Assembly (NCBI RefSeq): GCF_046600715.1
Contig: NZ_JBJMAV010000001.1
Coordinates: 149,980-213,979 of the forward strand
Source of the DNA: Novilysobacter viscosus
GTDB lineage: Bacteria; Pseudomonadota; Gammaproteobacteria; Xanthomonadales; Xanthomonadaceae
Length of the DNA stretch: 64,000 nt
Direction of reading: 5' to 3'
Below the pieces are notes generated by a model. The model was not told the origin of the DNA and made no database searches. It saw only the letters and a list, made by a program, of their open reading frames with translations. Each line of letters begins with the position of its first letter. Position 1 is the first letter of the stretch. Of this stretch, positions 7,284 through 46,714 are shown one piece after another. Made by a program: the position numbers and the translations under genes.

Positions 7284-7417
7284 CGCCGCGTCTCCTCTTC
7301 ATCCAGCGGCAACTGCGCCGCCTCGTCGAAATCGCGCTTGCGGCGGGGGCTCCAGGCCCAGGCCCAGCCGACCACGAACGCCACCAGCAGGACGGTGGTC
7401 ACGATGCCCGACAGCAT
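7280..7417 (-). CDS. ccoQ: cbb3 oxidase subunit CcoQ
   Basis: About 45 aa, MLSGIVTTVLLVAFVVGWAWAWSPRRKRDFDEAAQLPLDEEE. Sits between ccoO and ccoP. The upstream ORF extension was rejected. Confidence 0.6.
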   Translation of the reverse strand: MLSGIVTTVLLVAFVVGWAWAWSPRRKRDFDEAAQLPLDEEETRR

Positions 7418-7418
7418 G

Positions 7419-8048
7419 TCAGCCGCCCCCCGGAACGTGGCGGCCCAGGTCCTGCAGGTAGGCGACCACCGCGTCCAGTTCGGTCTTGCCGCGCACGTCG
7501 GCGGCAGCGGCGTCGATGTCCTGCTGCGAGTAGGGATCACCCAGGGTCCTCAGCGCACGCATGCGGCGGGTCACTTCCTGCCCATCGACGAAGTTCTCGG
7601 CCAGCCACGGGAACGACGGCATGTTCGACTCGGGCACCACGGCGCGCGGGTCGACCAGGTGCACGCGGTGCCAGTCATCCGAATAGCGCCCGCCCACGCG
7701 CGCCAGGTCCGGCCCGGTGCGCTTGGAACCCCACTGGAACGGGCGGTCGTAGACCGACTCACCGGCCAGCGAGTAGTGGCCGTAGCGTTCGGTCTCGAAG
7801 CGCAGGGTGCGGACCATCTGCGAGTGGCAGTTGTAGCAGCCCTCGCGAACATAGACGTCGCGCCCGGCCAGCTGCAGGGCGGGGTAGGGCTCGACCCCCG
7901 GCAACGGCTCGATCGCCTCGGCCTGGTACATCAGCGGCACGATCTCGGCCAGGCCGCCGAAGGAGACCACCACGGCGATCAGCACCGCCATCAGGCCGAC
8001 GTTCTTCTCGACCTTCTCGTGCGCGTTCTTGTTGTGTTCTTCGCTCAT
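7419..8048 (-). CDS. ccoO: cbb3 oxidase subunit II (monoheme c)
   Basis: CYNCHSQ heme motif and an N-terminal TM. 209 aa. Confidence 0.9.
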
Positions 8049-33671: not shown

Positions 33672-34437
33672 GTGGGCTCTCCTTGCGGATGGTGGCGCGG
33701 CGCCGTTTCCGGGCCGGAGTCGCTTCCTTGCCTGCCGCGCCGGTCTCAGCGGCCTGGGCGGCCAGCCGGGTCAGCACGTTCTCGACGGCGGGGGGCGTGG
33801 CGGTGATTCCTGCTGCCTGGAGCTTCTCGTCGAGCGGATCGTGCGGGACGTTGCCGCTCGATGGCCGGGCCCGGGTCGGGGGGGTCGACTGGCGGGAACG
33901 CAGCAATTCCGCCGAATCGATCGCCGTCGGGATTCCGGTGCCGGTACCCGACGCGCCCCCTGCGAACGCCTTCTCCGCGCTGGCGACGGCCTCGGAGGCA
34001 CGCAGCAGGTCAAGCTCGTGCTTGAGGCGCCTGAGGGCGTTGTGTCCGTGCCGCACCATGGCATCCAGCTCGGAGGCCCGGTCCGCGTTGTCCGTGAGCA
34101 ATGCCTGTTCCGCATCGCGCTCGGATTCCAGCTCGACGATCGACAGGGCGACTTCGCGGGCAAGGGCTGGCTGGCCGGCCCGCAGCGCAGCCACCGCCTG
34201 GGCCTCGCGCTGCACGATCTTCTCCAGGGTCGCTTCGTGCCGTTCCTGCGCGGTGTAGCGCTGCGCTTTCAGTACGTCGAGTTCGCGCCGGAGCGTCTTG
34301 AGCTCCTCGTCCACGCGGTGGATGCGATCGTCCAGGGCACGTCCTGCATTCCACTCGCGGACTCCGCCGCGCACCGTGTCGCCGATATCGGCGATCTGTG
34401 CACCGAGGCGGGCCAGAAGGGTGTCGCGGCGCTTCAC
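33664..34437 (-). CDS. PspA/IM30 (Vipp1/YjfJ-like) family protein
   Basis: PspA-type coiled coil (LARLGAQIADIGDTVRGG...LKTLRRELDVLKAQRYTAQERHEATLEKIVQREAQAVAALRAG). 257 aa. Confidence 0.8.
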   Translation of the reverse strand: MKRRDTLLARLGAQIADIGDTVRGGVREWNAGRALDDRIHRVDEELKTLRRELDVLKAQRYTAQERHEATLEKIVQREAQAVAALRAGQPALAREVALSIVELESERDAEQALLTDNADRASELDAMVRHGHNALRRLKHELDLLRASEAVASAEKAFAGGASGTGTGIPTAIDSAELLRSRQSTPPTRARPSSGNVPHDPLDEKLQAAGITATPPAVENVLTRLAAQAAETGAAGKEATPARKRRRATIRKESPRE

Positions 34438-35093
34438 GATGCGCTTGCCTCGTCATGCGGCCACACCTCATCACGCAGGAAGGCCCCGTATGCATCGACA
34501 CATGCGATGACATTGCCCGCAAGTGCTTCGATCTCGAACAGGATGTCGGCCAGGGGGGAATGCGTGCCGAGCGATCCGAACATGACATAGCTCGGCACGC
34601 CGGCGACCGGCTCGATGCCCATCGTGGTCAGCGGCCACAGCTTGTGCGTGCGCAGGACGCGGGCATTGAAGGCGGCCGGATCGGACACGTGGTCGAGCGG
34701 CCACATCAACACCTGGACGACGATCTGCAGGCCGCCGACGGCGACGAAGACCGGAAGGTCACCGTAGTCGCGCATCACCAGGCGCAGCGTCGGGTCGGCA
34801 CCCTCGGAGCGGTGCACTTCGATGCTCCCGGATCCAACGGGGGTGGATCCTTCGATGGCGCGCTGCAGTGCGGCCAGCGTCCACCCCGGTTCGCCCGGAG
34901 TCTCGCGCAGGCAGTCGATCCCCGGGGCTTCGCCGGACGCGGGCGCCTGGCGAAAGCGTTGTTCGACAGCGGCCAGATCCTCCGAGAACTCGGGGCGGAT
35001 CCACACGTCCTTCTTGACGAGGCCGGCGTTGCGCATCCGCGCGCGGAACTCGCGTACGTAATCGGCGGACGAGCGTGGCTTCCCTGCTTTCAT
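34434..35093 (-). CDS. YjfI-like DUF2170 protein with an about 90-aa N-terminal extension
   Basis: C-terminal 130 aa, LPVFVAVGGLQIVVQVLMWPLDHVSDPAAFNARVLRTHKLWPLTTMGIEPVAGVPSYVMFGSLGTHSPLADILFEIEALAGNV, fits the YjfI family. First gene of the operon. Confidence 0.65.
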   Translation of the reverse strand: MKAGKPRSSADYVREFRARMRNAGLVKKDVWIRPEFSEDLAAVEQRFRQAPASGEAPGIDCLRETPGEPGWTLAALQRAIEGSTPVGSGSIEVHRSEGADPTLRLVMRDYGDLPVFVAVGGLQIVVQVLMWPLDHVSDPAAFNARVLRTHKLWPLTTMGIEPVAGVPSYVMFGSLGTHSPLADILFEIEALAGNVIACVDAYGAFLRDEVWPHDEASAS

Positions 35094-35117
35094 GTAAGCA
35101 TCCTAGTTTCTTACATG
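35091..35117 (-). promoter_or_regulatory. perfect 8-bp inverted repeat CATGTAAG-N11-CTTACATG overlapping the start codon / SD of the first operon gene
   Basis: Seen directly in the sequence. The mRNA would fold as CAUGUAAG-aaacuAGGAugc-CUUACAUG, with the SD in the loop and the AUG in the 3' arm. Lies in an AT-rich leader. Confidence 0.6.
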
Positions 35118-35142
35118 TAACTTTACAACCCGGCCACCTAGC

Positions 35143-35176
35143 GTGCCGACGAACGGTTCGTTCGCCCAATCGGCAC
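35143..35176. promoter_or_regulatory. nested palindrome GTGCCGAcgaacgGttcgttcgcccaaTCGGCAC in the operon leader
   Basis: 7-bp outer arms enclosing ACGAAC-g-GTTCGT. No T-run follows, so an operator is more likely than a terminator. Confidence 0.4.
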
Positions 35177-35215
35177 ATGGGCTCAGCCCCGGTCGTCCCC
35201 CGGCAGGCGCTTCTT

Positions 35216-36310
35216 CTAGAGCCCCCGCCATTCCCCGGTGGCAATGATCGCACGCAGCGCGGCGTCCGGGCCGGAGGCGTCCAGTCCGCGCTGTGCCAGC
35301 CACGCCCGGTCGTAGAGCGTTGCGTCGTAGCTTTCGCCCGGGTCGCACAGCAGGCTGACGATGCTGCCCTGCATGCCTGCCGTTCGCATGCGCGCTGCCA
35401 GTTGCAGGCATCCGACCAGGTTGGTGCCCGACGAGCCGCCATAACGCCGGCCAAGGTGTTCCTCCAACAAGTGCATGGCGGCGATGGAGGCGGTGTCGGG
35501 AACCTCGACCACGTCGTCGACCACGTCGAACAGGAAGCCCGGCTCCACGCGTGGTCGGCCGATGCCTTCGATCACCGTCGGCATGCTGCAGGTGGCATCG
35601 CGGTCGCGCTGGCGCCAGCCGTGGATGAACGCGCTGCCGGCGGGGTCGGCGACGCACAGGCCGGTCGGCAGGCTGCGGTAGCGCAGGTAGCGGCCGATGG
35701 TGGCCGAGGTTCCGCCGGTCCCCGCGCCGCAAACGATCCAGGCGGGCTCGGGGTGGGGTTCGCCGGCCAGCTGGCCGATGATCGATTCGGCGATGTTGTT
35801 GTTGCCGCGCCAGTCGGTGGCGCGTTCGGCCAGGCCGAACTGGTCGAGGTGGCAGGCCCCGTTGCGGGCATGCCAGTCGGCGCGCTCGTACACCTGCGCG
35901 GGGTCGTCGACCAGGTCGCAACGGCCCCCGAGCGCCTGCACGTCGGCGATCTTGCGCGGTGCGGTGCACGCCGGCATCACCGCGGTGAATTCCAGCCCGA
36001 GCAATCGCGCGAACCAGGCTTCCGAGATCGCGGTGCTGCCGGACGACGCGTCCACCACCGGCTGCCCACGCCGCAGGCGACCGTTGCACAGCGCATACAG
36101 GTACAGCGAGCGGGCGAGGCGGTGCTTGAGGCTGCCGGTGGGGTGGGCGGCTTCGTCCTTGAAGTAGAAGTCGATGCCGGGGAATCCCGGGAACCCGAGC
36201 TTCAGCAGGTGGGTGTCGGCCGATCGCGCGGCTTCCTGCCGCAGCCGGGCCAGCGACTGCCCGGTCCACTCGCGCATGTCCGCGACGGTCGGGGCAGGCG
36301 CGATGTTCAC
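35216..36310 (-). CDS. PLP-dependent cysteine-synthase-family (CysK/CBS/SbnA-like) enzyme
   Basis: PLP lysine motif PTGSLKHRLA, Gly-rich loop GAGTGGT, 364 aa. Confidence 0.75.
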   Translation of the reverse strand: MNIAPAPTVADMREWTGQSLARLRQEAARSADTHLLKLGFPGFPGIDFYFKDEAAHPTGSLKHRLARSLYLYALCNGRLRRGQPVVDASSGSTAISEAWFARLLGLEFTAVMPACTAPRKIADVQALGGRCDLVDDPAQVYERADWHARNGACHLDQFGLAERATDWRGNNNIAESIIGQLAGEPHPEPAWIVCGAGTGGTSATIGRYLRYRSLPTGLCVADPAGSAFIHGWRQRDRDATCSMPTVIEGIGRPRVEPGFLFDVVDDVVEVPDTASIAAMHLLEEHLGRRYGGSSGTNLVGCLQLAARMRTAGMQGSIVSLLCDPGESYDATLYDRAWLAQRGLDASGPDAALRAIIATGEWRGL

Positions 36311-38292
36311 GCGCCGGTTTCCAGCAGGCTGCTGATCCGCCGGCCCAGGTAGGCCAGGTACATGTCGATGTAGCTGATGCCGTTGGCGTGGTCGACCAGG
36401 TAAGGGTTCATCAGCGTATGCCGCAGGATCACCAGCCGGTCGTTGTCATTGCCGCCGTCGGGGTCCAGGGTGCCGGGGTCGAGCCCGATCGAGCCCAGGA
36501 TCCGCCGCATCTCGACGTCGCCCACCGCCTCGGGTCGCAGCGTGGTCATTGATCCGAAGAACTGCTTGAGCTGGAGCGGCTGGCGCGGGTCGCAACGCAG
36601 CTCGTCGTGGATCCTGCGCACGAACGCATTGGCCACCGACAGGTCGGCATTGCCCGCCGGGTTGATCGCCAGGCAGACCAGGTTGCTGTCGGGCGCGAAG
36701 GGCACGGCCACCCGTGCCACGCCCTCCAGCTCGCGGGCCAGCCCCAGTGCCGCTTCGTGCAGCGCCTCGGCCGCGAGCACGGTCTGCCGCGGCAGGTGTC
36801 CGAAGTTGAGGTGGTCCAGCGGCAGCACCTTGTGGGTGACATAGACCGCGGCCGCCGCCGCGCCGGACTTGGAGCCTTCGGGTACGAACTGGCCGAGCTG
36901 GCGATAGCGGGTGAGGTAGTTCCGGGCCGGATCCGGGTCGGCCGGGCCTTCGCGGAACACATAGTCCGCCGCTTCCGACAGCAGCGCGGTGGCGCGATGG
37001 TCACGGCAGATGAAGGCGCCGGCCCCGTAGGGCAGGTAGCCCAGTTTGTGCGGATCGACGGTGACCGAATCGGTCCGCCCCAGTGCGGCGAACGCGGCGT
37101 GTACCTCGGGCAACGGGAAGCGTGCGAAGTCCTCGCGCACCTCGTCGAGACCACGCAGGCTGCCATCGGGATTGCGGAACAGCGTGGCGAGATAACCACC
37201 CCATGCACCGTCCACGTGCACGCTGAAGCCCAGGCCCATACGCAGCGCGCGTTCCCGGGCGTCTACCACCGCGTCGACGGGATCGACCGTGCCGTACTCG
37301 GTGGTGCCCAGCACGGCTACCGCCAGCAGCACCGGCTGGCGCTCGCGCTCGCATCGCTGCAGCGTCGATTCGAGTGCGTCCGCATCCAGGCGCATGCCGC
37401 GCTCGGGCAACAGTTCGAGCTGGTCGCGACCGAGCCCGAGCAGCTTCAATCCCTTGCTCCAGGAATAGTGCGCAGTGATCGGTGCCAGCACCTTCGGCAC
37501 CCGCAGGTCCGGGTGGCGGGCGAAGAACCCGACCATGCCGAGGTGTTCCAGCCGCTCGGCCTGCACCGCCTCCCGCCAGCGCCTGCGGTCGCGGGGCGAC
37601 TGCGCGGCGAGCCAGTCCTGCCACTGCACCACCAGCCCGGTACCGGCATCGGGGCCGGTGTTGAACACGGACCAGTCATCGCCGGGAAGCTCGATGTCCG
37701 GTACGCCTGCCGCCCGCAACGCGACCGGGAACGCCTTCAGCGCGAGCGCCAGCCGCAGTGCCTGGTAGTTGGCGACGGTACCGCCGGAGGTGAGGTGTCC
37801 GAAGGCGCAGTCGGGCTGCGCGGGATCGTTCGGGTAGCCCAGCATGCGCGCCAGTTGCAGGCCGACCTGGACTTCCAGGTCGATCGTGACGGGCGCGGCA
37901 TCTTCGCTGACGTTGTTGGGGTTGTAGGGCAGGGTGAGGATCTGTGCGGCCAGCCCGGGCAGCAACAGGTCGGACGCCATGTGGCCGATGTAGCGGGGGC
38001 TGTGGAACGGCACCGACCTCTTGAGCGAGGCCGACAGCTGGTGGAGCTCGCGCCGAAGCCGGGCCTCGAAGGCCTGGTACCCGGGCTGTTGCGCGGCGTG
38101 GGTCGGGATCGCCGGCGGATCCTCGGGATGGAAGTTGCGGCGCCAGTAGACGTGGTCGCGCAGGAACTCCACCACCAGCTTCTCCAGCATGGTGTCGTTC
38201 TCGCCGTACGGGCCGAGGAACAGGGCGTCCAGCATGCCCCGGTCAGGGTCGCTCCCGGCGCGGCTCGTCGATGGGGGCAGCGGGCCGGACAT
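36307..38292 (-). CDS. group II PLP-dependent amino-acid decarboxylase
   Basis: SPRYIGHMASD...TLPYNPNNVSEDAAPVTIDLE, HLTSGGTVANYQAL, HVDGAWGG and VDPHKLGYLPYGAG (PLP-Lys) match the DDC/GAD/CSAD family. Start is uncertain (38292 or 38235). Confidence 0.7.
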   Translation of the reverse strand: MSGPLPPSTSRAGSDPDRGMLDALFLGPYGENDTMLEKLVVEFLRDHVYWRRNFHPEDPPAIPTHAAQQPGYQAFEARLRRELHQLSASLKRSVPFHSPRYIGHMASDLLLPGLAAQILTLPYNPNNVSEDAAPVTIDLEVQVGLQLARMLGYPNDPAQPDCAFGHLTSGGTVANYQALRLALALKAFPVALRAAGVPDIELPGDDWSVFNTGPDAGTGLVVQWQDWLAAQSPRDRRRWREAVQAERLEHLGMVGFFARHPDLRVPKVLAPITAHYSWSKGLKLLGLGRDQLELLPERGMRLDADALESTLQRCERERQPVLLAVAVLGTTEYGTVDPVDAVVDARERALRMGLGFSVHVDGAWGGYLATLFRNPDGSLRGLDEVREDFARFPLPEVHAAFAALGRTDSVTVDPHKLGYLPYGAGAFICRDHRATALLSEAADYVFREGPADPDPARNYLTRYRQLGQFVPEGSKSGAAAAAVYVTHKVLPLDHLNFGHLPRQTVLAAEALHEAALGLARELEGVARVAVPFAPDSNLVCLAINPAGNADLSVANAFVRRIHDELRCDPRQPLQLKQFFGSMTTLRPEAVGDVEMRRILGSIGLDPGTLDPDGGNDNDRLVILRHTLMNPYLVDHANGISYIDMYLAYLGRRISSLLETGA

Positions 38293-38299
38293 CGCGACG

Positions 38300-38701
38300 T
38301 CAGCCGAGCAGGCCATGCCCGAACCCCAGCGGATGGTGGGCCCTGGCGATGCTGTAGACCATGCCGAAGGTGGCCAGGGCGGCGACGTAGAAGCCGGCGC
38401 GCGCCCCGCGGGTGCGGCCACGGCGAAGTGCGAGCACGCCGAAGACCACGTACACCACCAGCAGCACCAGCTTGGCGGCGAGCCAGCCATTGGAGAACAG
38501 CGCGCCGGGCAGGATCGTCAGCAGCATCAGTGCCGCGGTGAGCAGGGTGGTGTCGATGCCGTAACTGGTCCAGCGCACGGCGGTCCACTGGGGCCAACGC
38601 ATGCCTGCCAGCGAGGCGCCGCCGCGCAACGCGAACAGCAGGCCGCTGGCCACCGCCATCATGATGTGGACGTGCTTGATCTGCGGGTAGAACTCGATCA
38701 C
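38300..38701 (-). CDS. SirB2 (YchQ)-family small membrane protein
   Basis: MIEFYPQIKHVHIMMAV... resembles SirB2. 133 aa, 4 TM. Confidence 0.55.
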   Translation of the reverse strand: MIEFYPQIKHVHIMMAVASGLLFALRGGASLAGMRWPQWTAVRWTSYGIDTTLLTAALMLLTILPGALFSNGWLAAKLVLLVVYVVFGVLALRRGRTRGARAGFYVAALATFGMVYSIARAHHPLGFGHGLLG

Positions 38702-38732
38702 GGGAAGCTTCCTTGGAGTACGGGCCGAGCGG

Positions 38733-39965
38733 TCAGCCGGGACGGCCGTCGATGCGGGGGGTCAGGTAGATGGCGCCGATGCGCACCACCCAGGGGGCGA
38801 ACGCCAGCAGCCAGCCGACTGCGGCCGCCGCCTGCCACGCCATGCCGTCGGGCGCGGCTTCGGCCACCACGCGCGTCACCGCGACCAGCTGGATGGCCAC
38901 GAAGGCGAACCAGGCGGTCGGCGACATTTCCAGCGCGCGGCCGGAGTGGCCCTGGGTGACACGGGTCACCATCGCCACCAGCACGCTGCCGAAGAAGCCG
39001 ATGAACAATGCATGCGCGGGGCCACGGCCCAGCCAGTACACGCCGGTCAACTCGTAGGCGATGCTCTGGCCGACATAGAGCGCGAACGCCAGCGGAAGCC
39101 AGGCCATGCCGACGAACAGCACCGCCAGGATCCCCGGCTTGGGACCACGCGGCCACCAGCGCCACAGCATCAGTCCGGTCAGGCCCAGCAGCGGCAGGTC
39201 GACCACCCACAGCCAGCCGTAGGCGTGGAAGAGTTCAAGCACCAAATGGGCCAGCGACAGGGGCCAGAACGCACCGAGCAGCCACATCGGCCGCCACGCC
39301 GTGTATCCGGGCACCACGCGGCCGGCAAAGAACGGGAACATGCGGTGTGCCACGGTCATGTAGACCGGGAGAAGCAACCCGAACGTGCCCATCTTGATGC
39401 TGGCGAACGCCCACAGCGGGGATGCCCCCAGCACGAACGCGGTCCATGCGAGGACACCGCAGAAGCCGAGCACCAGCGCGCCGAAGCATGAGCGCGCATG
39501 CCAGGTCACGCCCTGTTCGCGCCACAGCACCGGCGCAAGCGTGAGCAGGCCTGCCAGCCAGCCGGCCATGGTCATCAGCAGGCCCACGGTGATGCCGGCG
39601 TCCCAGCCGATCGCACCCAGCAGCGTCGCCAGTTGTCCGCCGAACAGACCAAGCCCGACGGGCACGTAGCGCCAGCGGTCGAAGTCCGGCTGGCCGGTCC
39701 ATTTCGGGAAGGTGGTGAGCAGGAAGCCGAAGAAGAAGCTGGGCAGCATCTGGTATTGCATGACGAACGCATGCAGCCAGCCCGCGGGCTGCGCAGGTTG
39801 CGGCAGCGCCATGCCCGGCCAGCGTGCCGATGCGAGCCATGCGGCCCACCACGCCATGGCCAGCAACAGGTTGGTGGCGCCGATGAAGAACATCAGGCGG
39901 TGTGGAGCCTGGCCAAGCACGGCGGGCGAAATCTTCCGGGACGGCGGGGACGTGGTGTTCTGCAT
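38733..39965 (-). CDS. nnrS: NnrS-family heme-copper membrane protein (NO-stress response)
   Basis: 410 aa with about 12 TM and conserved His-rich helices. Internal start MQNTTSPP. The upstream 423 aa of the 833-aa ORF overlap norB out of frame and were rejected. Confidence 0.8.
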   Translation of the reverse strand: MQNTTSPPSRKISPAVLGQAPHRLMFFIGATNLLLAMAWWAAWLASARWPGMALPQPAQPAGWLHAFVMQYQMLPSFFFGFLLTTFPKWTGQPDFDRWRYVPVGLGLFGGQLATLLGAIGWDAGITVGLLMTMAGWLAGLLTLAPVLWREQGVTWHARSCFGALVLGFCGVLAWTAFVLGASPLWAFASIKMGTFGLLLPVYMTVAHRMFPFFAGRVVPGYTAWRPMWLLGAFWPLSLAHLVLELFHAYGWLWVVDLPLLGLTGLMLWRWWPRGPKPGILAVLFVGMAWLPLAFALYVGQSIAYELTGVYWLGRGPAHALFIGFFGSVLVAMVTRVTQGHSGRALEMSPTAWFAFVAIQLVAVTRVVAEAAPDGMAWQAAAAVGWLLAFAPWVVRIGAIYLTPRIDGRPG

Positions 39966-40000
39966 GTCGACAGGATGAAGGTTGGTGGCGTGCAGGTCAT

Positions 40001-40014
40001 TGATTTGGATCACG
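40001..40014. promoter_or_regulatory. FNR/NNR box TTGATttggATCAc upstream of nnrS
   Basis: 9/10 match to TTGAT-N4-ATCAA, centred about 42 bp upstream of the nnrS ATG. Confidence 0.6.
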
Positions 40015-40046
40015 GGTGCCACGGATGACCGGGGTCGGCGGCGCGG

Positions 40047-40081
40047 CCGGCCCCAAGAAAAAGGGCGGCCACGTGGCCGCC
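40047..40081 (-). terminator. rho-independent terminator downstream of norB
   Basis: GGGCGGCCACGTGGCCGCCC perfect hairpin followed by TTTTTCTT on the minus strand (an A5 run on the plus side, so potentially bidirectional). Confidence 0.7.
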
Positions 40082-40102
40082 CTTTTCCTGTCCAACATCC
40101 GG

Positions 40103-42430
40103 TCAGCCGGACTGGATCTCCGACCCGTGCTCCCCGGGCTCCTCCAGCTTCGGCTTCACCCAGAGGCGCAGCACGAAGTAGATCAGGGCCAGGGCGCCGA
40201 TGCTGAAGATCGTGTCGCCGGGCACCCGCATCCACACCAGCAGGTCGACGATGGGCTTCTGCATGAACTCCGCCGAGCGGGCATACCAGTAGCCATGCTC
40301 GATCGCCGCCAGCAGCTGCATCGTGCCCAGCGGCAGCAGCGTGAGCACCGCCATCAGTGCCAGGCCGATGTTGAGCGACCAGAAGCTGATGCGCAGCGCC
40401 TTCTCGTTCCACACCTGGTTGGGTCGCAGGCCGCGCATGCAGAACAGCACCAGCGCGATGCCGAGCATGCCGTACACCCCGAACAGCGCGGTGTGGCCGT
40501 GCAGCGGCGTCAGGTTGAGGCCCTGCATGTAGTAAAGCGAGAGCGGCGGGTTGATGAGGAAGCCGAACAGGCCCGCACCCACCAGGTTCCAGAACGACAC
40601 CGACAGGAAGAAGAAGATCGGCCAGCGGTAGCGTTGCATCCACGGCGTGGCCTTGCCAAGCCTGTAGGTGTGGTACGCCTCGAAGCCGATGTAGGCCAGC
40701 GGCACCACTTCCAGGGCACTGAAGCTCGCGCCCAGCGCAATCACCGCGGTCGGGCTGCCGACGAAGTACAGGTGGTGCAGGGTGCCCAGCACGCCGCCGG
40801 TCATGAACACGATGGTGGCGAACAGCACCGCCACCGACGCGGTCGACGCGCGCAGCAGGCCCAGCTTGGTGAAGATCAGTGCCATCACCGCGGTGGCGAA
40901 CACTTCGAAGAAGCCTTCCACCCACAGGTGCACCAGCCACCAGCGCCAGTACTCGACGATCGAGATGTGGGTGTGTTCGCGCCACATCAGGCCGGCGGCG
41001 AAGAACACGCCGATGGCGACCGTGGACAGGAACAGCAGCCCGACGATGGATTTGGTGTCGGTCTTCGGACCGGTCAGCACCGGCCACAACGCACGGCCCA
41101 CCATCGTCAGCCACAGCAACAGGCCGATGAACAGGAACCACTGCCAGAAGCGGCCGATGTCGGCGTACTCCCAGCCCTGGTGGCCGAACCAGAAGTTGTT
41201 GGCGATGCCGAGCTTCTGCATCACCGCGAACCATTGCCCGGCGAACGCGCCGACGACGATGATCACGAGGCAGGCGAACAGGAAGTTGACGCCCAGCCGC
41301 TGGAAGCGCGGTTCATGGCCCGACAGCGCCGGTCCGATGTAAAGGCCCGTGCCCAGCCACGCAACCGCGATCCACAGCACCGCCAATTGCGTGTGCCAGG
41401 TGCGGGTGATCGAGTACGGCAGGATTTCCGAAAGCTGGAACCCGTAGGCTTGCTGGCCTTCGATCTGGTAATGCGCGGTCATCGCGCCGAACAGGATCTG
41501 CACCAGGAACAATGCCAGCACCAGCCAGAAATACTTGGCCGTGGCCCGCATCGAGGGCGTGACCTTGAGTGCGGCCAGGGGATCCCGGTCGGGGATGCGG
41601 TGGCCGTCGTCATGGCCGTGGGTCACGGCATGGTGCCAACCCAGCAGCGCGATACCGGCGATCAGGAACAGCACGCTGAAGGCCGACCACACCCACGTGC
41701 TCGGCGGCGGCGTGTTGCCGACCAGCGGCTCGCCGGGCCAGTTGTTGGTGTAGGTGACGCGCTTCTCGGCGATGCCCGGACGGTCCGGTGCCACCGTCTC
41801 CGACACGCCTACGTGGCGCTCGGTCGTCGCCGCCCATGCGGTCCACCAGAAGAACGAGGCCAGTGCACGGCGATGCTCGGCATCGGGCACCGTGTTGTTC
41901 TTCATCGCGTAGGCTTCGCGCAGCTCCGCGGTGGCCGGGTCGTTGCCGAACAGGCTCTCGTAATGCGCCGACACGTTGGACATCGCCACCACCCGGTCCA
42001 TGTCCAGGGTGATCGTGCCGGTCGCCGGGTCGTAGGTGTTCTCGCGCATCATTTCCTGCAGGCGGCCCTGCAGGGAAGCGCGGTCACCGGCCGGAAGCTG
42101 CTCGTATGTCGCCATGCCGCCATCGGCACGCGCCCACATGTTGAGGATCTCGATGGCCTCGCGGTGCAGCCAGTCCGCGCTCCAGTCCGGGGCGACGTAG
42201 GCGCCGTGGCCCCAGATGGAACCCAACTGCATGCCGCCGGTGGTCTGCCAGACCTGGCGACCCCGCTCCATGTCGGCACGCGTGTAGATGACGGTGCCGT
42301 CCTGGGCCACCACCTGCTCCGGCATCGGAGGCTTGTACCGGTTGATTTCGCCGCCGGACCACAGCAGCACGCTGAACGATGCAATGAGCAGGACGGCAAG
42401 TCCTATCCAAAGCCTTCTTGTATTCCCCAT
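40103..42430 (-). CDS. norB: quinol-dependent nitric-oxide reductase (qNor, single-subunit NorB/NorZ)
   Basis: 775 aa: N-terminal periplasmic extension plus a 12+ TM heme-copper-oxidase-like core with conserved His. Confidence 0.9.
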   Translation of the reverse strand: MGNTRRLWIGLAVLLIASFSVLLWSGGEINRYKPPMPEQVVAQDGTVIYTRADMERGRQVWQTTGGMQLGSIWGHGAYVAPDWSADWLHREAIEILNMWARADGGMATYEQLPAGDRASLQGRLQEMMRENTYDPATGTITLDMDRVVAMSNVSAHYESLFGNDPATAELREAYAMKNNTVPDAEHRRALASFFWWTAWAATTERHVGVSETVAPDRPGIAEKRVTYTNNWPGEPLVGNTPPPSTWVWSAFSVLFLIAGIALLGWHHAVTHGHDDGHRIPDRDPLAALKVTPSMRATAKYFWLVLALFLVQILFGAMTAHYQIEGQQAYGFQLSEILPYSITRTWHTQLAVLWIAVAWLGTGLYIGPALSGHEPRFQRLGVNFLFACLVIIVVGAFAGQWFAVMQKLGIANNFWFGHQGWEYADIGRFWQWFLFIGLLLWLTMVGRALWPVLTGPKTDTKSIVGLLFLSTVAIGVFFAAGLMWREHTHISIVEYWRWWLVHLWVEGFFEVFATAVMALIFTKLGLLRASTASVAVLFATIVFMTGGVLGTLHHLYFVGSPTAVIALGASFSALEVVPLAYIGFEAYHTYRLGKATPWMQRYRWPIFFFLSVSFWNLVGAGLFGFLINPPLSLYYMQGLNLTPLHGHTALFGVYGMLGIALVLFCMRGLRPNQVWNEKALRISFWSLNIGLALMAVLTLLPLGTMQLLAAIEHGYWYARSAEFMQKPIVDLLVWMRVPGDTIFSIGALALIYFVLRLWVKPKLEEPGEHGSEIQSG

Positions 42431-42485
42431 CGAGGCATCTCCGTGAATGGCTGCATCATGCTCGCGGTTGGCGCGGTCAACCGCG

Positions 42486-42499
42486 TTGACTCAGGTCAA
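42486..42499. promoter_or_regulatory. NNR/DNR-type box TTGACtcagGTCAA upstream of norB
   Basis: Perfect palindrome, 56 bp upstream of the norB ATG. Confidence 0.65.
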
Positions 42500-42662
42500 G
42501 TTTCGTCAGGACGATTCTGCCAACCAGGCCCGCGCTGTCAGGAACCGGGCCCCAGCGCCACGTGCAGCCGTGTGCATCGCAGCGCAGCGCGGCGCTGCGC
42601 GGACCATGGTCGGCCGTGTCCCGGGAGCGGGAAAGTGACTTCCGCGTTGTTACGGCCGGCGC

Positions 42663-43415
42663 TCAGGCGCGCAGGACGGGCTCGGCGAGTTCTTCGAGCT
42701 TCGGGCGGTCCAGCAGCTCAAGTTCGCGCCGATCCACGACCAGCAGGCCGTCCTTCTGGAAGCGGCGCAGCACCCGGCTGACGGTTTCCGGCGCCAATCG
42801 GAGGTAGTTGGCGATGTCGGTGCGCGCCATGGTCAGCTGGAAGCGGTTGGGCGAAAACCCGCGCGCGGCGAGCCGGCGTGCCATGCCGACCAGGAACGCG
42901 GCCATGCGCTGGTCGGCCGTCCAGTCGCCGGCCAGCAGCGCTGCCCTGCCGATGTCGCGGCTCAACAGCCGGAACAGGTGCTTCTGCAGCCCCGGCAACC
43001 GGGATGCAAGCACCGCGATCTTGGGGAACGAGAACCGGCACAGCATCGCCGTGTCCAACGCCACCGCGTTGCAGGGGTAGGTCTCGCCGTCGATCGCATC
43101 CAGCCCGATCACTTCACCGGGCAGGTAGAAGCCCAGCACGTGTTCCCGGCCGTCGCGGTCGATCACGTAGGTCTTGACGGTGCCGGCGCGGACCGCGGCG
43201 ATCGCCTCGAAGGGATCACCCACCCGGAAGATGTGGTCGCCGGCATGGAACGGGCCGACGTGCTCGACCAGCACGTGCAGGTCCATCAGCGAGCGCTTGT
43301 CCATGCCCTCGGCCATGCAGGCCTGGGAAAACGCGCAGGTCGAGCAGAACGAGAACTCGTCGCCGTCGTCGGAGAGCGTGCGCTCGTCCTGGCGGGGAAA
43401 CGCGGTCGGCTTCAC
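42663..43415 (-). CDS. fnr: FNR/ANR-type global anaerobic regulator (4Fe-4S Cys cluster present)
   Basis: N-terminal CSTCAFSQAC...C cluster, cNMP-like domain and C-terminal HTH (ANYLRLAPETVSRVLRRFQ). 250 aa. Confidence 0.85.
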   Translation of the reverse strand: MKPTAFPRQDERTLSDDGDEFSFCSTCAFSQACMAEGMDKRSLMDLHVLVEHVGPFHAGDHIFRVGDPFEAIAAVRAGTVKTYVIDRDGREHVLGFYLPGEVIGLDAIDGETYPCNAVALDTAMLCRFSFPKIAVLASRLPGLQKHLFRLLSRDIGRAALLAGDWTADQRMAAFLVGMARRLAARGFSPNRFQLTMARTDIANYLRLAPETVSRVLRRFQKDGLLVVDRRELELLDRPKLEELAEPVLRA

Positions 43416-43434
43416 GCGCGCCCCCGGGGCGATG

Positions 43435-44832
43435 TCAGATCGCTCGGGAGAAGCGGGGCGCGGCCGGGACGGGGGACGGGTCGAGGTATCGGTCGAAGCA
43501 CATCGCTATGTTACGCAGCAACAGCCGTCCGCGCGAGGTGGCGACGATCCTGCGCTCCTCGACCCGGACCAGCCCGTCCTCCATGAGCGGGTGGAGCCGG
43601 TCCAGCGCGTCGGCGAAGTACTCGCCGAAATTGATCAGGTAGCGGCGTTCCAGCGCGTCGATGGGGATCTGGCCCTGGCACATCAGGCTCTGGATCAGGT
43701 CGGCGCGCAGCTGGTCGTCCTCGCTCAGTCGCATGCCGCGGAAGACCGGCAGGCGGCCCTCGTCAAGCGCGATCTGCCAGCTGGGCAGGTCGCGCGGGTT
43801 CTGGCTGAAGCTGTCGCCGATATGGCTGATCGCGCTCACCCCGAGCCCGATCAGGTCGGTGTCGGCGTGGGTGGTATAGCCCATGAAATTGCGGTGCAGT
43901 CCGCCGCGCGCCTGCGCTGTGGCGAGGTCGTCGTCCGGCAGCGCGAAGTGGTCCATGCCGATGTAGGAATAGCCCGCGCCGGTGAGCTTCTCGATGGCCA
44001 GTTGCAACAGCGCCAGTTTTACTTCCGGTGCCGGCAGGTCAGCTTCCCCTATCTGGCGCTGCGGCTTGAACATGGCCGGCAGGTGGGCGTAGCTGTACAC
44101 CGCCAGCCGGTCCGGGCGGGCCTGGACCACGGTATCCAGCGTGCGCGAGAACCCTTCGAGGTTCTGCTTGGGCAGGCCGTAGATCAGGTCGACATTGACC
44201 GATCGGAAGCCATGCTCGCGGCAGGCATCGATGATCGCCACCGTCTCCTCGACGCTCTGGATGCGGTTGACCGCCTGCTGCACCACCGGGTCGAAATCCT
44301 GCACGCCAAGGCTGGCGCGATTGAAGCCGATGGCGGCCAGTTCACCCACCTCGGCCGGCGTGATGAAGCGCGGATCCAGCTCGATCGACAGGTCGCGGTC
44401 GCGCGACTCGGAGAAGTGGAACTGGCTGCGCAGGGTTTCCACCACCTCGCCCAGCTGGGCCGGCGAGAGGAAGTTGGGCGTGCCGCCGCCGAAATGGAGC
44501 TGGATCACCTCGCGGTCGCGGTCGAACAGCTCGGCCATCATCGCGATCTCGCGGTACAGGCGGACCAGGTAGGTTTCGCCCCGCGCCAGGTCACGGGTGA
44601 TGATCCGGTTGCAGCCGCAGTAGAAGCACGGGCTCATGCAGAACGGCACGTGCACGTACAGCGAGAGCCGGCGCGGAATGGGGTCGCCATTGCTGGCGGC
44701 TACCGTATCGCGCAATTCACGCTCCCCGAAGCCGGCGTGGAACTGCGGCGCGGTGGGGTAGGAGGTGTAGCGCGGACCGGGCCGGTCATAGCGACGGAGC
44801 AGGCCGGGGTCGAATTGGGCGGTAGCGATCAT
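43435..44832 (-). CDS. hemN: oxygen-independent coproporphyrinogen III oxidase (radical SAM)
   Basis: MIATAQFDPGLLRRYDRPGPRYTSYPTAPQF is the canonical HemN N-terminus. CxxxCxxC radical-SAM motif (CMSPCFYCGC). 465 aa. Confidence 0.9.
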   Translation of the reverse strand: MIATAQFDPGLLRRYDRPGPRYTSYPTAPQFHAGFGERELRDTVAASNGDPIPRRLSLYVHVPFCMSPCFYCGCNRIITRDLARGETYLVRLYREIAMMAELFDRDREVIQLHFGGGTPNFLSPAQLGEVVETLRSQFHFSESRDRDLSIELDPRFITPAEVGELAAIGFNRASLGVQDFDPVVQQAVNRIQSVEETVAIIDACREHGFRSVNVDLIYGLPKQNLEGFSRTLDTVVQARPDRLAVYSYAHLPAMFKPQRQIGEADLPAPEVKLALLQLAIEKLTGAGYSYIGMDHFALPDDDLATAQARGGLHRNFMGYTTHADTDLIGLGVSAISHIGDSFSQNPRDLPSWQIALDEGRLPVFRGMRLSEDDQLRADLIQSLMCQGQIPIDALERRYLINFGEYFADALDRLHPLMEDGLVRVEERRIVATSRGRLLLRNIAMCFDRYLDPSPVPAAPRFSRAI

Positions 44833-44866
44833 GCGTGCAGGCTATGGCGCTGCCTGCGCGGGTGCC

Positions 44867-44880
44867 TTGATCTCGGTCAA
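44867..44880. promoter_or_regulatory. FNR box TTGATctcgGTCAA upstream of hemN
   Basis: Centred 41.5 bp upstream of the hemN ATG. Confidence 0.65.
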
Positions 44881-44904
44881 ACCCCGCCGTCAGGCGGGCA
44901 AGGC

Positions 44905-45498
44905 TCAGGCTGCCTGGTCGCTGGGCAGCGACTTGTCGAGACGGGCATACCACTCGCCGCCGTCGGGGACGAACATCGAACAGGCCTGCATCGGCCCCTT
45001 GTAGATGTGCACCGAGACCGCCACCGCGTCCTGGCGGGTGTTGCGGATGGTGTGGTACTCGTGCGGCGGGATCAGGCTGCCGGCGCTGCCGGGCCCGGCG
45101 ACCATGCCGCCGGCGGCGCGGAAGCGGAAACGCTCCCCATCACGCTCCAGCAGTTCGTACTGGGTGATCTCGAGTTCCCCGTCCCACACCCCTTCAACGC
45201 ACCACAGGCCGCAGTGGTCGTGGACGGGGGTGCCCTGGCCCGGGCCCCAGGTCATCGCCACGACGCTATAGCCCAGTTCGGGGCTGCGGTAGATCTCGCG
45301 GCGTGCGTAGTGGTCCTCGAGCGGGTCGTACACGCACGCCGGCAGGCGGACGTCGCGGTCGCGGATCATCCGGCACAGGGTGTTGCGCAGCGCGGAGGTG
45401 ATGGCGTGCTGGTCGCCCGCGGAGACGGCCAGGTCGAGCGCGTGGACCAGCTTGTCGTGGCCGGGGAAGTCGATGTCGGGCAGGGCGGCGGCGTTCAT
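44905..45498 (-). CDS. cupin-fold cysteine-dioxygenase-type-I-like protein
   Basis: Start MNAAALPDIDF. Cupin His motifs (PVHDHCGLWCVEGVWDGE...HEYHTIRN). 197 aa. The upstream 110 aa of the ORF were rejected. Confidence 0.55.
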   Translation of the reverse strand: MNAAALPDIDFPGHDKLVHALDLAVSAGDQHAITSALRNTLCRMIRDRDVRLPACVYDPLEDHYARREIYRSPELGYSVVAMTWGPGQGTPVHDHCGLWCVEGVWDGELEITQYELLERDGERFRFRAAGGMVAGPGSAGSLIPPHEYHTIRNTRQDAVAVSVHIYKGPMQACSMFVPDGGEWYARLDKSLPSDQAA

Positions 45499-45580
45499 GC
45501 GGCTGATTTTACGCCGGTGCGGTCCCCGCTGCCGGCCGTGGGTGTCCAGAGCGTCCGCCGCACCCGTTTCGCCACCTCGG

Positions 45581-46714
45581 CTACAGCGATTCCAGGAAGT
45601 CGCGCACCGCCGGCCCGAACCGGGCGATGTCGACCAGGAACGCGTCGTGCCCCTGTGGCGACTCCAGCGGCAGGAACCGGGCGTCGGCCCCGCCATCGCG
45701 CAGGCCGTCGGCAATCTCCTGCTGTTGTTGCAGCGGAAACAGGATGTCCGTGTGCACGCCGATCGCCAGGGCTTTCTCGATGCCGATCTTCGCCAGCCCG
45801 GCCCGCGTCTGGCCTTCGCTGGGTCCACCGCGGCGCTCGCAGTAGTCGCCCACGTCGAACCAGTCCATCGAGCGGCTCAGGTAGAGGTAGCAGTTGGGGT
45901 CGAAGCGGCGTACGAACCGCCGCGCATGGGCTTCAAGGTAGCTCTCGACCTCGAACTCCAGCCCGAACGGGTCGTCGTCGGCGCGGTCCGAGTCCAGGCG
46001 GACGCGGCCGAAGCGGCCGTCCCACTCCAGCGCCGAACGGTAGGTAATCACGCCCAGCTTGCGCGCCATCCGCATGCCCGATTCGGGATAGTGGTCGTCG
46101 TCGTAGTCGCCGCCGTTCCACAGCGGGTCCAGGCGGATCGCTTCGCGTTGCAGCGAGCGGATGGCAATGGAGAAGGGCAACGCGCGCGCGGCGCCGGAGA
46201 TGTTGACGTGGCTGCGGGCGATGCCCGGGTGCCGCACGAGCAGGGCTAGTGCGGTCATGCCGCCCATCGAGTTGCCGATGACGCAGGCGAGGCGGTCGAT
46301 GCCCAGTTCGCGAAGCACGTGCAGCGCGGCTTCGGCGCCGTCCTCGATCGAGAGTTCGGGGAAAGCCAGCCGATAGGGCGTCCCGGTGCGCGGGTCGATG
46401 GATGCCGGGCCGGTCGACCCCTTGCAGCTGCCAAGCGAATTGACGCACACCACGAACCAGCGGTCGCTGTCGATCGGCTTGCCCGGGCCCAGCATCTCCT
46501 CCCACCAGCCCGGCTCGGGATTGGCCCGGTTGGCGGCGGCATGCGCGTCCGGCGACAGGCCGGTCAGAACCAGCACCGCGTTGTCGCGGGCGGCATTGAG
46601 CGTGCCCCAGGTTTCGTACGCCACCCGCGCGCCGTGCAGTGCGTCGCCGCGCCGCATCGGGAACGGATCGGGCAGGGCGATGAAGCGGGTGCCGGGGGGA
46701 ATGAATTCGGTCAT
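45581..46714 (-). CDS. metX: homoserine O-acyltransferase
   Basis: alpha/beta hydrolase with nucleophile elbow GNSMGG. MetX family, 378 aa, start MTEFIPPG. Confidence 0.8.
   Translation of the reverse strand: MTEFIPPGTRFIALPDPFPMRRGDALHGARVAYETWGTLNAARDNAVLVLTGLSPDAHAAANRANPEPGWWEEMLGPGKPIDSDRWFVVCVNSLGSCKGSTGPASIDPRTGTPYRLAFPELSIEDGAEAALHVLRELGIDRLACVIGNSMGGMTALALLVRHPGIARSHVNISGAARALPFSIAIRSLQREAIRLDPLWNGGDYDDDHYPESGMRMARKLGVITYRSALEWDGRFGRVRLDSDRADDDPFGLEFEVESYLEAHARRFVRRFDPNCYLYLSRSMDWFDVGDYCERRGGPSEGQTRAGLAKIGIEKALAIGVHTDILFPLQQQQEIADGLRDGGADARFLPLESPQGHDAFLVDIARFGPAVRDFLESL

Follow-up and report, generated by a model that had tools for sequence, protein, structure and literature searches.

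Nitrate-respiration and denitrification clusters of several gammaproteobacterial lineages repeatedly include a PLP enzyme that resembles tyrosine decarboxylases and whose gene is preceded by an FNR box; in Lysobacterales, this enzyme is joined with nnrS, a membrane protein of the SirB2 family, and a Cds1-like sulfur enzyme. We analysed this combination in a 64,000-nt stretch of Novilysobacter viscosus DNA (the window) and read it, with a probability of roughly 0.55, as a low-oxygen (FNR-family) activated stress operon made of separately recruited modules whose enzymes act in parallel. The reductases and regulators of denitrification and NO tolerance are well charted, whereas several conserved accessory genes, nnrS included, lack a mechanism; the Lysobacterales include Rhodanobacter, an acid-tolerant groundwater denitrifier. 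The analysis yields concrete candidates for an amino-acid or sulfur arm, not described so far, of the response to NO stress under anaerobic conditions. It also gives a genomic reason for the role in anaerobic fitness that was recently reported for SirB2, and it corrects the default annotations of the two PLP enzymes ("cysteine synthase" and "glutamate/tyrosine decarboxylase"). No description of the four-gene combination was found in the searchable literature, including Rhodanobacter omics, in line with the preliminary description, which had called it an undescribed pathway.

The four genes lie on the minus strand, in the order nnrS (38733-39965; 410 aa, haem-copper membrane protein family), a gene for a SirB2-family inner-membrane protein (38300-38701; 133 aa, four predicted transmembrane helices; sirB below), a group II PLP-dependent amino-acid decarboxylase of a tyrosine-decarboxylase-like clade (36307-38292; 661 aa, PF00282 and PF21391), and a PALP/cysteine-synthase-family gene of the Cds1-like branch encoding a fold-type II PLP enzyme (35216-36310; 364 aa, PF00291; PALP below). 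As reported earlier, they are co-oriented and separated by gaps of 31, 7, and −4 nt, the last of which corresponds to a PALP GTG start overlapping the decarboxylase stop by 4 nt (GTGA). Alternative decarboxylase starts are present at ATG 38316, overlapping sirB by 17 nt (gap of −17), and at ATG 38235; the N. spongiicola gene is called from the equivalent of ATG 38316 and overlaps sirB. Other species keep these short distances: median gaps, each based on 30 to 47 loci per gene pair, were 19 nt for nnrS-sirB, −1 for sirB-decarboxylase, and 23 for decarboxylase-PALP, compared with 136 for norB-nnrS. Just upstream of nnrS, a 15-bp GC-rich hairpin with a U-run (40054-40090, minus strand; −33.5 kcal/mol, z = −2.6) acts as a predicted strong intrinsic terminator of norB (40103-42430, minus strand), which encodes the quinol-dependent NO reductase qNorB (775 aa; PF22085 and PF00115), indicating that nnrS begins a separate transcription unit. 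No terminator-like sites were found inside the four-gene block, and an Rfam scan of positions 34000-46000 matched no RNA family. Judged from the sequence, the genes from nnrS to PALP are probably co-transcribed, and the data support a four-gene, operon-like unit behind an FNR-family box.

This box, TTGATTTGGATCAC (40000-40013), is centred ~41.5 nt 5′ of the nnrS ATG and carries one mismatch to TTGAT-N4-ATCAA; at that stringency, five matches were found window-wide versus 0.2 expected by chance. Of 31 orthologous loci, 21 have its equivalent (CTGAyCTGnnTCAA) between −41.5 and −45 relative to the nnrS start when up to two mismatches are allowed, compared with 7% of control windows. A palindrome at class II distance 5′ of the first gene, kept in orthologues, places nnrS in an FNR/DNR/NNR-type regulon. 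Boxes were also predicted upstream of norB (TTGACCTGAGTCAA, 42486-42499; at −62 in orthologous loci) and of hemN, the gene for oxygen-independent coproporphyrinogen oxidase (43435-44832, minus strand; box at 44867-44880, found at about −42 in 14 of 20 loci). The hemN-fnr-norB order is conserved, and the translation of the CRP/FNR-family regulator gene (42663-43415, minus strand) contains an FNR-type cysteine cluster (FCSTCAFSQAC), i.e., the C-X2-C-X5-C iron-sulfur motif, which identifies it as FNR/ANR type rather than NnrR or DNR. Other genera have weaker, DNR-like paralogues close to norB, and the FNR-family box fits FNR (O2) and DNR/NNR (NO) control alike. The "NNR box" and "NnrS control" proposed earlier are imprecise terms in view of the neighbouring FNR-type regulator.

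The same terms are imprecise for the decarboxylase, since an FNR-type box is retained upstream of this gene where nnrS is absent, stand-alone loci included. Boxes with at most one mismatch within 320 nt upstream of the decarboxylase were present in 17 of 75 genome loci versus 2.6% of random positions; upstream boxes were further found in 8 of 10 Kangiella-like loci and in 7 of 34 diverse high-GC loci (1.9% in the latter comparison). Enrichment was ~6-fold in the Kangiella-like group and 9- to 11-fold in the other two.

NnrS matched PF05940 over its full length (198.9 bits, cut-off of 28; residues 19-404 on profile positions 4-371), and its orthologues occupy the same position in related loci. 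Experiments in Rhodobacter and Vibrio characterised NnrS as a membrane protein that binds haem and copper and reduces the formation of dinitrosyl-iron (PMC9246220). In the DNR, NnrR, NsrR, and NorR regulons, nnrS has been described either as a single-gene unit or together with nsrR, hmp, or nor genes, and no decarboxylase, cysteine-synthase-family, or SirB gene is mentioned with it in that regulon survey (Rodionov et al. 2005; PMC1274295). These NO-responsive loci, as well as V. cholerae nnrS, share with the window the protein family, the CRP/FNR-family palindrome, the regulatory logic, and the proximity to NO reductase and hemN-fnr genes, but differ in the adjoining regulator, which here is FNR type with a Cys cluster.

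The sirB product belongs to PF04247 (109.3 bits, cut-off of 30.9) and is 100% identical to a "SirB2 family protein" of Lysobacter sp. A3-1-A15, whereas its score with the enterobacterial SirB2 model NF007622 (28.3 bits versus a cut-off of 190) sets it apart from that equivalog. Its AlphaFold model is a generic bundle of four long helices (pLDDT of 73) for which the best Foldseek match in the PDB reached only an E value of 0.76, and the only secondary Pfam match, to UPF0093/HemJ (E = 2.1), was not significant, so that the fold gave no clue to function. P. aeruginosa SirB2 (PA14_RS04555), likewise a PF04247 four-helix inner-membrane protein, has been studied through a mutant impaired in anaerobic nitrate respiration (PMC12721095), a defect that matches the genomic context of sirB. 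The Pseudomonas gene adjoins oprG and is under Vfr and AmrZ, with no link to NO proposed (PMC12721095), whereas in the loci studied here sirB lies between the decarboxylase gene and nnrS (or norB).

The decarboxylase is a member of the group II PLP-dependent family (PF00282, 72.5 bits, cut-off of 27) with a marginally scoring C-terminal TyrDC domain (PF21391, 29.1 versus 27.2 bits). It aligned full length (residues 21-642) with the Enterococcus-type tyrosine decarboxylase model TIGR03811, although at 290 bits versus an equivalog cut-off of 905, and matched the L. brevis TyrDC structure 5hsi at E = 2e-80. The catalytic residues are intact (PLP Lys416 within DPHK, pyridine-N Asp361, stacking His275, and catalytic-loop Tyr444), most of these positions being invariant or nearly so across the family, and Y422 and T626 are the counterparts of LbTDC Y398 and S586. 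This pocket comparison would be compatible with an aromatic substrate, but the residues are not discriminating; given the 290-bit score and an identity of about 29-35% to characterised tyrosine decarboxylases, an aromatic substrate is a guess. Firmicute TyrDC/Tdc enzymes (L. brevis 5hsi, E. faecalis 7cwx) share the long group II fold with the TyrDC C-terminal domain, the four catalytic residues, and the Y398/S586 equivalents. However, they are encoded by acid-induced tdc operons, whereas the decarboxylase of our locus is found behind an FNR-type box in nitrate-respiring Gammaproteobacteria and has no tyrP-type or Na+/H+ antiporter gene as neighbour. With no precursor/amine antiporter encoded near the decarboxylase, the case for a classical role in acid resistance or the proton-motive force is weakened. 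A plasmid collection contained only distant tdc genes (29-37% identity).

Among curated families, the PALP protein (PF00291, 161 bits) is best described by Cds1, by 346 bits. It scored 480 bits on positions 1-354 of NF052478, below the equivalog cut-off of 600, versus 134 for PRK10717 (CysK; cut-off of 387), 113 for SbnA (350), 90 for CysKM (344), 80 for CysM (394), and 75 for the cysteate synthase CapA (600); the protein is therefore nearest to Cds1 and not to SbnA or cysteate synthase. The sequence retains the PLP Lys (SLKHR) as well as GSSG and the GTGGT glycine loop, and it has Ser (SSGST) in place of the substrate-loop Asn of CysK/CBS (TSGNT). An exact look-up of the protein sequence returned no identical record. 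M. tuberculosis Cds1 (Rv3684), of the same fold-type II class and about 360 aa in length, with its whole 354-position profile covered by our protein, turns Cys into H2S and pyruvate (and NH3), an activity established for Rv3684 alone; with an 11 mM Km for cysteine (PMC8389258), Cds1 may have a physiological reaction other than desulfhydration. The PALP protein departs from Cds1 in its sub-cut-off score and in its norB/nnrS/decarboxylase neighbourhood, a context not known for Cds1. Furthermore, the decarboxylase-linked type is more diverged from Cds1 (440-480 bits) than a second Lysobacterales paralogue (530-542 bits), which lies near the decarboxylase in three loci where the usual PALP is missing (L018, L074, and L083).

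With PALP nearest to Cds1 and the decarboxylase nearest to tyrosine decarboxylases, the two products suggested in the preliminary description are unsupported. A diaminopropionate/2,4-diaminobutyrate route was rejected as the primary reading on the low SbnA score and on that of the DABA decarboxylase model NF052646 (68.9 bits versus 900). A hypotaurine/taurine route through the cupin at 44905 was also discarded: CSAD structures matched the decarboxylase at 52-54 bits over only about 100 residues, similarity to cysteate synthase was weak, and the cupin is not conserved with the cluster, since in none of 84 loci did a homologue of it lie within 10 kb of the decarboxylase gene.

In the operon of separately recruited modules that we favour, the unit lies beside qNorB but would be transcribed on its own, with each module belonging to the anaerobic nitrate-respiration/NO regulon in its own right. 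NnrS would serve as a membrane haem-copper protein, as does its Vibrio counterpart in shielding the iron pool from dinitrosyl-iron formation, and the four-helix SirB2-family protein may resemble its Pseudomonas homologue, required for fitness in nitrate respiration. The cytoplasmic decarboxylase would convert an amino acid, probably aromatic or otherwise bulky, to an amine and CO2 with the consumption of one proton. It may thereby provide a protective amine or a proton sink, comparable to the cadaverine made by E. coli lysine decarboxylase against acidified nitrite; cadaverine from LdcI/LdcC increases E. coli resistance to nitrosative stress (PMC4832331). The stress-induced, proton-consuming reactions of LdcI/CadA, AdiA, and SpeF would be analogous to this proposed role, but these enzymes belong to the AAT-fold LAOdc family, work alongside antiporters, and are under the control of pH sensors; none of these features is found at our locus. 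The Cds1-like enzyme, presumably beta-eliminating or beta-replacing and working on cysteine or sulfide, could tune the cysteine/sulfide pool when Fe-S and sirohaem enzymes come under attack from NO and nitrite, whether by releasing sulfide or by making cysteine from sulfide or thiosulfate. The two PLP enzymes would thus work in parallel, not in sequence.

The distribution of the decarboxylase bears on this parallel arrangement. It is the widest-ranging member of the anaerobic regulon, with relatives at 45-51% identity encoded among nar, nirS, or fnr-hemN genes in Paraglaciecola (narK-DC-narX-narGHJ, where DC is the decarboxylase), Kangiella (narGHJI...DC-fnr-hemN), and one further lineage (3 kb from nirS-nirJ-nirF). 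Among 80 species-level Lysobacterales loci holding the gene, sirB was directly upstream in 44, norB nearby in 33, and nnrS in 29, so that orthologues do co-occur with nnrS; the same linkage recurs in metagenomic loci. Two loci (L027 and L031) carry a gene for an alternative oxidase as an insertion between sirB and the decarboxylase, consistent with an NO-stress island. A YeeE/YedE-type sulfur-compound transporter in two halves (PF04143 and DUF6691) follows PALP at a single locus (L178); this transporter and a P-type ATPase seen in a handful of loci were considered as unit members and rejected as too rare.

It is possible, though less probable than parallel action, that the two PLP enzymes catalyse successive steps of one coupled pathway, yielding a dedicated small metabolite that acts in NO or anaerobic physiology. 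PALP would either combine serine, O-acetylserine, O-phosphoserine, or cysteine with a nucleophile to give a beta-substituted alanine that the decarboxylase converts to an amine, or use the amine released by the decarboxylase as its nucleophile, in the manner of SbnA. No gene neighbours the decarboxylase more often than PALP (adjacent in 50 of the 80 loci), which lies at gaps of at most 60 nt in 46 of 47 cases and shows the stop/start overlap in the window. The linkage is kept through the rearranged Dokdonella-type order (nnrS-sirB-PALP-x-DC), and in L018, L074, and L083, where the usual PALP is missing, the second Cds1-like paralogue lies beside the decarboxylase. These traits would fit a coupled pathway better than parallel action; the divergence of the linked PALP type would suit a new function, and the high Km of Cds1 hints at a missing co-substrate. 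Nevertheless, either enzyme can also be found on its own in this type of setting, which weakens the one-pathway idea that the conserved pairing had inspired. The decarboxylase lacks PALP in 30 of the 80 loci, in at least 16 Lysobacterales species it is a solitary gene with an FNR-type box of its own, no PALP gene is found within 8-10 kb in Kangiella-like and Paraglaciecola loci, and PALP orthologues (74-76% identity) follow norB directly with no decarboxylase in L177 and L178. Besides the poor scores for diaminopropionate/DABA- and hypotaurine-type products, no third conserved pathway gene (ligase, acyltransferase, or exporter) was found alongside the two.

More tentative still is the specific proposal that the decarboxylase and the Cds1-like enzyme make a new small amine or thio-amine under FNR control against NO/nitrite in denitrifying Gammaproteobacteria, with the SirB2-family protein as a membrane partner or a qNor/NnrS accessory. 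An accessory role of this kind would, if true, explain the anaerobic-respiration defect of the P. aeruginosa sirB2 mutant.

We consider it unlikely that PALP functions like CysM/CysK2 as a cysteine or S-sulfocysteine synthase that works anaerobically, tolerates NO, and uses sulfide or thiosulfate, thereby bypassing the nitrite-/NO-sensitive sirohaem sulfite reductase during denitrification, with the decarboxylase unrelated and merely co-regulated. Its membership in the cysteine-synthase family with every PLP motif present, its ties to norB by itself, and the sulfur-transporter halves behind it at L178 would agree with such a function, and there are precedents, enteric CysM being the isozyme favoured anaerobically and M. 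tuberculosis maintaining stress-resistant alternative cysteine synthases. However, the CysK, CysM, and CysKM models score 65-134 bits versus cut-offs of 344-413, the loop Asn is Ser, the transporter neighbours PALP in one locus only, and Cds1, the sole characterised close relative, eliminates instead of synthesising.

Finally, a meaningless juxtaposition of housekeeping PLP enzymes beside nnrS in this lineage is very improbable: more distant decarboxylase homologues (43-45% identity) do have neighbours unrelated to nitrogen-oxide metabolism, and clustering of the neighbours of 36 diverse metagenomic loci revealed no common partner beyond occasional fnr and hemN, but a conserved, nonrandom association of both PLP enzymes with NO/denitrification genes is supported by the linkage repeated in dozens of species with differing gene orders, by the enrichment of FNR-type boxes 5′ of the decarboxylase, and by independent recruitment to nar, nir, and nor clusters in four lineages.

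On the basis of its sequence and gene context, the block nnrS-sirB-DC-PALP is best filed as an anaerobic or NO-stress operon with undescribed enzymatic cargo. The region has a G+C content of ~68%, and all its genes from hemN to PALP lie on the minus strand. Read in that direction, hemN (43435-44832) comes first, followed by a CRP/FNR-family regulator gene (42663-43415), the quinol-dependent NO reductase (qNorB) gene norB (40103-42430), nnrS (38733-39965; PF05940, 199 bits), the SirB-family membrane protein gene sirB (38300-38701; PF04247, 109 bits), the gene of a 661-aa group II PLP decarboxylase (DC; 36307-38292; PF00282 and PF21391), and that of a 364-aa fold-type II PLP enzyme (PALP; 35216-36310; PF00291). 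The last four genes are separated by 31 nt (nnrS-sirB), 7 nt (sirB-DC), and a 4-nt GTGA overlap (DC-PALP), confirming the preliminary description of co-oriented, closely spaced genes with precisely these gaps. Possible alternative DC starts are ATG 38316, which overlaps sirB by 17 nt and is the start called in Novilysobacter spongiicola, and ATG 38235. A 15-bp hairpin and a subsequent U-run mark the norB 3′ end; inside the four-gene block neither a terminator-like site nor an Rfam element was found, and its genes are probably co-transcribed. The encoded SirB matches its counterpart in Lysobacter sp. A3-1-A15 at 100% identity, and DC is 94% identical to its N. spongiicola counterpart, which places the window in a Lysobacteraceae genome. 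Downstream of PALP, DUF2170(BacA-like)/PspA form a separate unit. The 122-nt spacer 3′ of the PALP stop (35094-35215) contains an imperfect hairpin without U-run and then an unusually AT-rich part (TTGTAA-17 nt-TAGGAT, 6 nt, ATG) that looks like a separate, nearly leaderless promoter for the DUF2170/BacA-like gene (34434-35093).

To survey the arrangement, DC relatives were scanned with one genome per species, and the neighbors of the best 80 of the 597 returned were located by tblastn of the window's proteins. These 80 all belong to Lysobacterales (66 to 94% identity) and span Lysobacter, Luteimonas, Thermomonas, Pseudoxanthomonas, Rhodanobacter, Dokdonella, Dyella, Frateuria, and Arenimonas. 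PALP is adjacent and co-directional to DC at 50 of the 80 loci, sirB lies directly upstream of DC at 44, norB within 6 kb at 33, and nnrS in the neighborhood at 29; DC stands alone at 16, plus 7 on truncated contigs. Gene order varies, with norB-sirB-DC-PALP lacking nnrS in Rhodanobacter and nnrS-sirB-PALP-x-DC in the Dokdonella type. Estimated median intergenic distances are short within the unit (nnrS-sirB, 19 nt; sirB-DC, -1; DC-PALP, 23) and long between norB and nnrS (136 nt), which indicates that nnrS-sirB-DC-PALP recurs as an operon-like unit separate from norB. Between sirB and DC, Lysobacter yangpyeongensis (L027:9045-9722) and Cognatiluteimonas profundi (L031:9140-9889) carry a gene for an AOX-like (alternative oxidase) di-iron protein; AOX is an NO-insensitive oxidase and an NsrR target in Vibrio fischeri. 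A Ca/Mg-type P-type ATPase (~850 aa) lies a few kilobases from DC or PALP at six loci (L015, L016, L078, L134, L173, and L177), and at L016 it occupies the place of PALP directly after DC. That an nnrS gene can lie behind an FNR-family box beside nor genes is textbook knowledge. No decarboxylase, cysteine-synthase-family, or sirB gene is mentioned in the 2005 regulon survey, and the literature searched contained no account of the four-gene combination, as the preliminary description had claimed. The linkage is genuine, conserved, and previously undescribed, and it opens to testing both the biology of NnrS and SirB2 and a possible new branch of metabolism in denitrifiers.

Upstream of nnrS, after the norB hairpin, the box TTGATTTGGATCAC (40000-40013) has one mismatch to TTGAT-N4-ATCAA. 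The window contains five such one-mismatch matches versus 0.2 expected: one more precedes hemN, and the other three are at 8515, 16459, and 26624, at least two of them inside long ORFs. A two-mismatch box, TTGACCTGAGTCAA (42486-42499), precedes norB. Among related loci, the motif CTGAyCTGnnTCAA (at most two mismatches) is centered -41.5 to -45 from the annotated nnrS ATG in 21 of 31, against 7% of random windows. This spacing is class II FNR geometry, and its near constancy in ~20 species argues that the nnrS transcription start coincides with the start codon or lies only a few nucleotides from it, which implies a putatively leaderless or near-leaderless mRNA. DC genes not fused to nnrS-sirB also have a box of their own: at most one mismatch within 320 nt upstream was found at 17 of 75 genome loci versus 2.6% of random positions, and these 17 include six DC genes alone and five with PALP only. 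The same holds for metagenomic loci of the Lysobacterales type (9/27 versus 3.8% of controls), Kangiella-like loci (8/10 versus 13%), and a diverse high-GC group (7/34 versus 1.9%). Boxes of this type are common to FNR, ANR, DNR, and NNR. The regulator next to norB (42663-43415) has the FNR/ANR-type N-terminal Cys motif FCSTCAFSQAC and is probably an O2 sensor rather than an NO sensor of the NNR/DNR kind; the earlier wording of an "NNR-boxed" nnrS and of "NnrS control" is therefore imprecise, while the FNR-family box itself is present. Weaker paralogues of this regulator (35 to 38% identity) adjoin norB in Cognatiluteimonas and Rhodanobacter loci (L021, L031, and L037-L039).

DC matches the tyrosine decarboxylases of Lactobacillus brevis (LbTDC; E = 2e-80) and Enterococcus faecalis (E = 8e-76) over its full length, but on the TyrDC equivalog model it reaches no more than 290 bits against a cut-off of 905, and it is 29 to 35% identical to the products of genuine tdc genes. 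Transfer of the published LbTDC residues (PMC4904194) by alignment revealed retention of the PLP lysine K416 (DPHK), D361, A363, the stacking H275, T331, the phosphate loop G171/T172, and the catalytic-loop Y444, as well as of the pocket residues Y422 (LbTDC Y398) and T626 (LbTDC S586). DC should thus be an active, amine-producing decarboxylase with a plausibly aromatic substrate. Far poorer matches were obtained with DABA decarboxylase, PanP, GAD, histidine decarboxylase, and sulfinoalanine decarboxylase (CSAD). Around residues 466 to 472, the window's DC has LGQFVPEGSK versus LGxYILEGSK in most family members and LbTDC; this Tyr-to-Phe change adjoins the flexible catalytic loop, whose catalytic Y444 is kept.

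PALP has the PLP lysine (SLKHR), the glycine loop, and GSSG, and aligns over the whole profile of Cds1, the Mycobacterium tuberculosis L-cysteine desulfhydrase, with 480 bits (cut-off, 600); scores on other models were 134 (CysK), 113 (SbnA), 92 (CBS), and 75 bits (cysteate synthase). Cds1 breaks cysteine down into H2S, pyruvate, and ammonia (Km, 11 mM; PMC8389258). A second Lysobacterales paralogue (53 to 57% identical) reaches 530 to 542 bits on the Cds1 model and lies near DC at three loci from which the usual PALP gene is missing (L018, L074, and L083). Both look-ups anchored on PALP (2/2) placed an orthologue (74 to 76% identity) directly behind norB without DC. L177 has norB-PALP with a 5-nt gap (L177:3695-7101), and L178 has hemN-fnr-norB-PALP and then two small sulfur-transporter halves of the YeeE/YedE type (PF04143 and DUF6691; L178:3636-8092); nnrS-sirB lies 4 kb from there. 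In L177, norB is preceded by a truncated ribonucleotide-reductase-like gene (PF02867, 348 aa).

We favor parallel, co-regulated functions of DC and PALP over a two-step pathway, with a probability of about 0.55; the block is most likely a mosaic of enzymes that are each of an ordinary type. Coupling of the two enzymes in one pathway, which we consider less likely, draws on the facts that PALP is the commonest neighbor of DC, that their junction is almost always tight, that the linkage is kept through rearrangement, and that the Cds1-like paralogue can occupy the place of PALP. However, many genomes, and every lineage examined outside Lysobacterales, carry DC on its own, preceded by an FNR-type box, and norB-PALP occurs without DC in L177 and L178, indicating that each enzyme is linked to the NO/anaerobic genes independently of the other. 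The AOX gene between sirB and DC in two species likewise fits a mosaic "NO-stress island" better than a biosynthetic cluster. The linkage survives from the preliminary interpretation, but the specific products it named are not supported: for diaminopropionate/DABA, PALP scores low on SbnA and DABA decarboxylase matches DC poorly, and for hypotaurine/sulfinate, PALP scores low on cysteate synthase and CSAD matches DC poorly. The proposed link to a CDO-like cupin (44905-45828, minus strand), just upstream of the hemN box, lacks support as well: no homologue was found in 84 of 84 related loci and the N. spongiicola locus does not contain the gene, which suggests an insertion specific to this strain. 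Its PF05995 match is confined to the C-terminal part, and the true start is thus probably an internal Met near residue 110.

Under parallel functions, low oxygen, possibly reinforced by NO via a DNR-like paralogue, would activate the class II FNR-type promoter, and the transcript would span nnrS, sirB, DC, and PALP. NnrS would limit dinitrosyl-iron formation, its reported role (PMC9246220). The SirB2-family protein may aid anaerobic respiration; the Pseudomonas aeruginosa homologue is a fitness requirement on nitrate, and mutants lacking it have a raised NADH/NAD+ (PMC12721095). That study proposed no link to NO; the gene context here points to one. The Cds1-like enzyme could tune cysteine and sulfide while Fe-S and siroheme enzymes are under attack, either by releasing sulfide or lowering free cysteine or by making cysteine from sulfide or thiosulfate. 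DC would consume a proton and yield an amine, with a precedent in E. coli, where cadaverine from lysine decarboxylase protects against nitrosative stress (PMC4832331). The absent antiporter and the low identity to characterized enzymes are the main weaknesses of this scheme.

A search of representatives of 50%-identity clusters gave a single tight Lysobacterales DC cluster, beyond which lie a few clusters at 43 to 51% and then tyrosine-decarboxylase-like proteins at 35 to 40%. Paraglaciecola mesophila has narK-DC-narX-narGHJ, with moaA, mobA, moaCDE, and narL alongside; Kangiella has narGHJI-ppiC-moeA ... mobA-DC-fnr-hemN, and the order DC-fnr-hemN recurs in ten metagenomic contigs. In an uncultured lineage (51% identity), nirS-nirJ-nirF-nirDL lies 3 kb away. 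Homologues at 43 to 45% in other lineages have unrelated neighbors, and the diverse metagenomic group has none in common. The DC clade has thus been recruited time and again into anaerobic nitrate-respiration or denitrification clusters, outside Lysobacterales without PALP, sirB, or nnrS. More widely, and as a new point, this TyrDC-like clade belongs to the FNR-type regulons of nitrate respirers. At the nirS-linked locus (L095:7876-8700, minus strand, and 6523-7773), a LigB-family extradiol dioxygenase gene (PF02900) is divergently adjacent to DC, and an Alginate_exp-type porin gene separates it from nirS. The same porin family occurs near DC at L085, L108, L125, and L128, which are Paraglaciecola and Kangiella-like loci.
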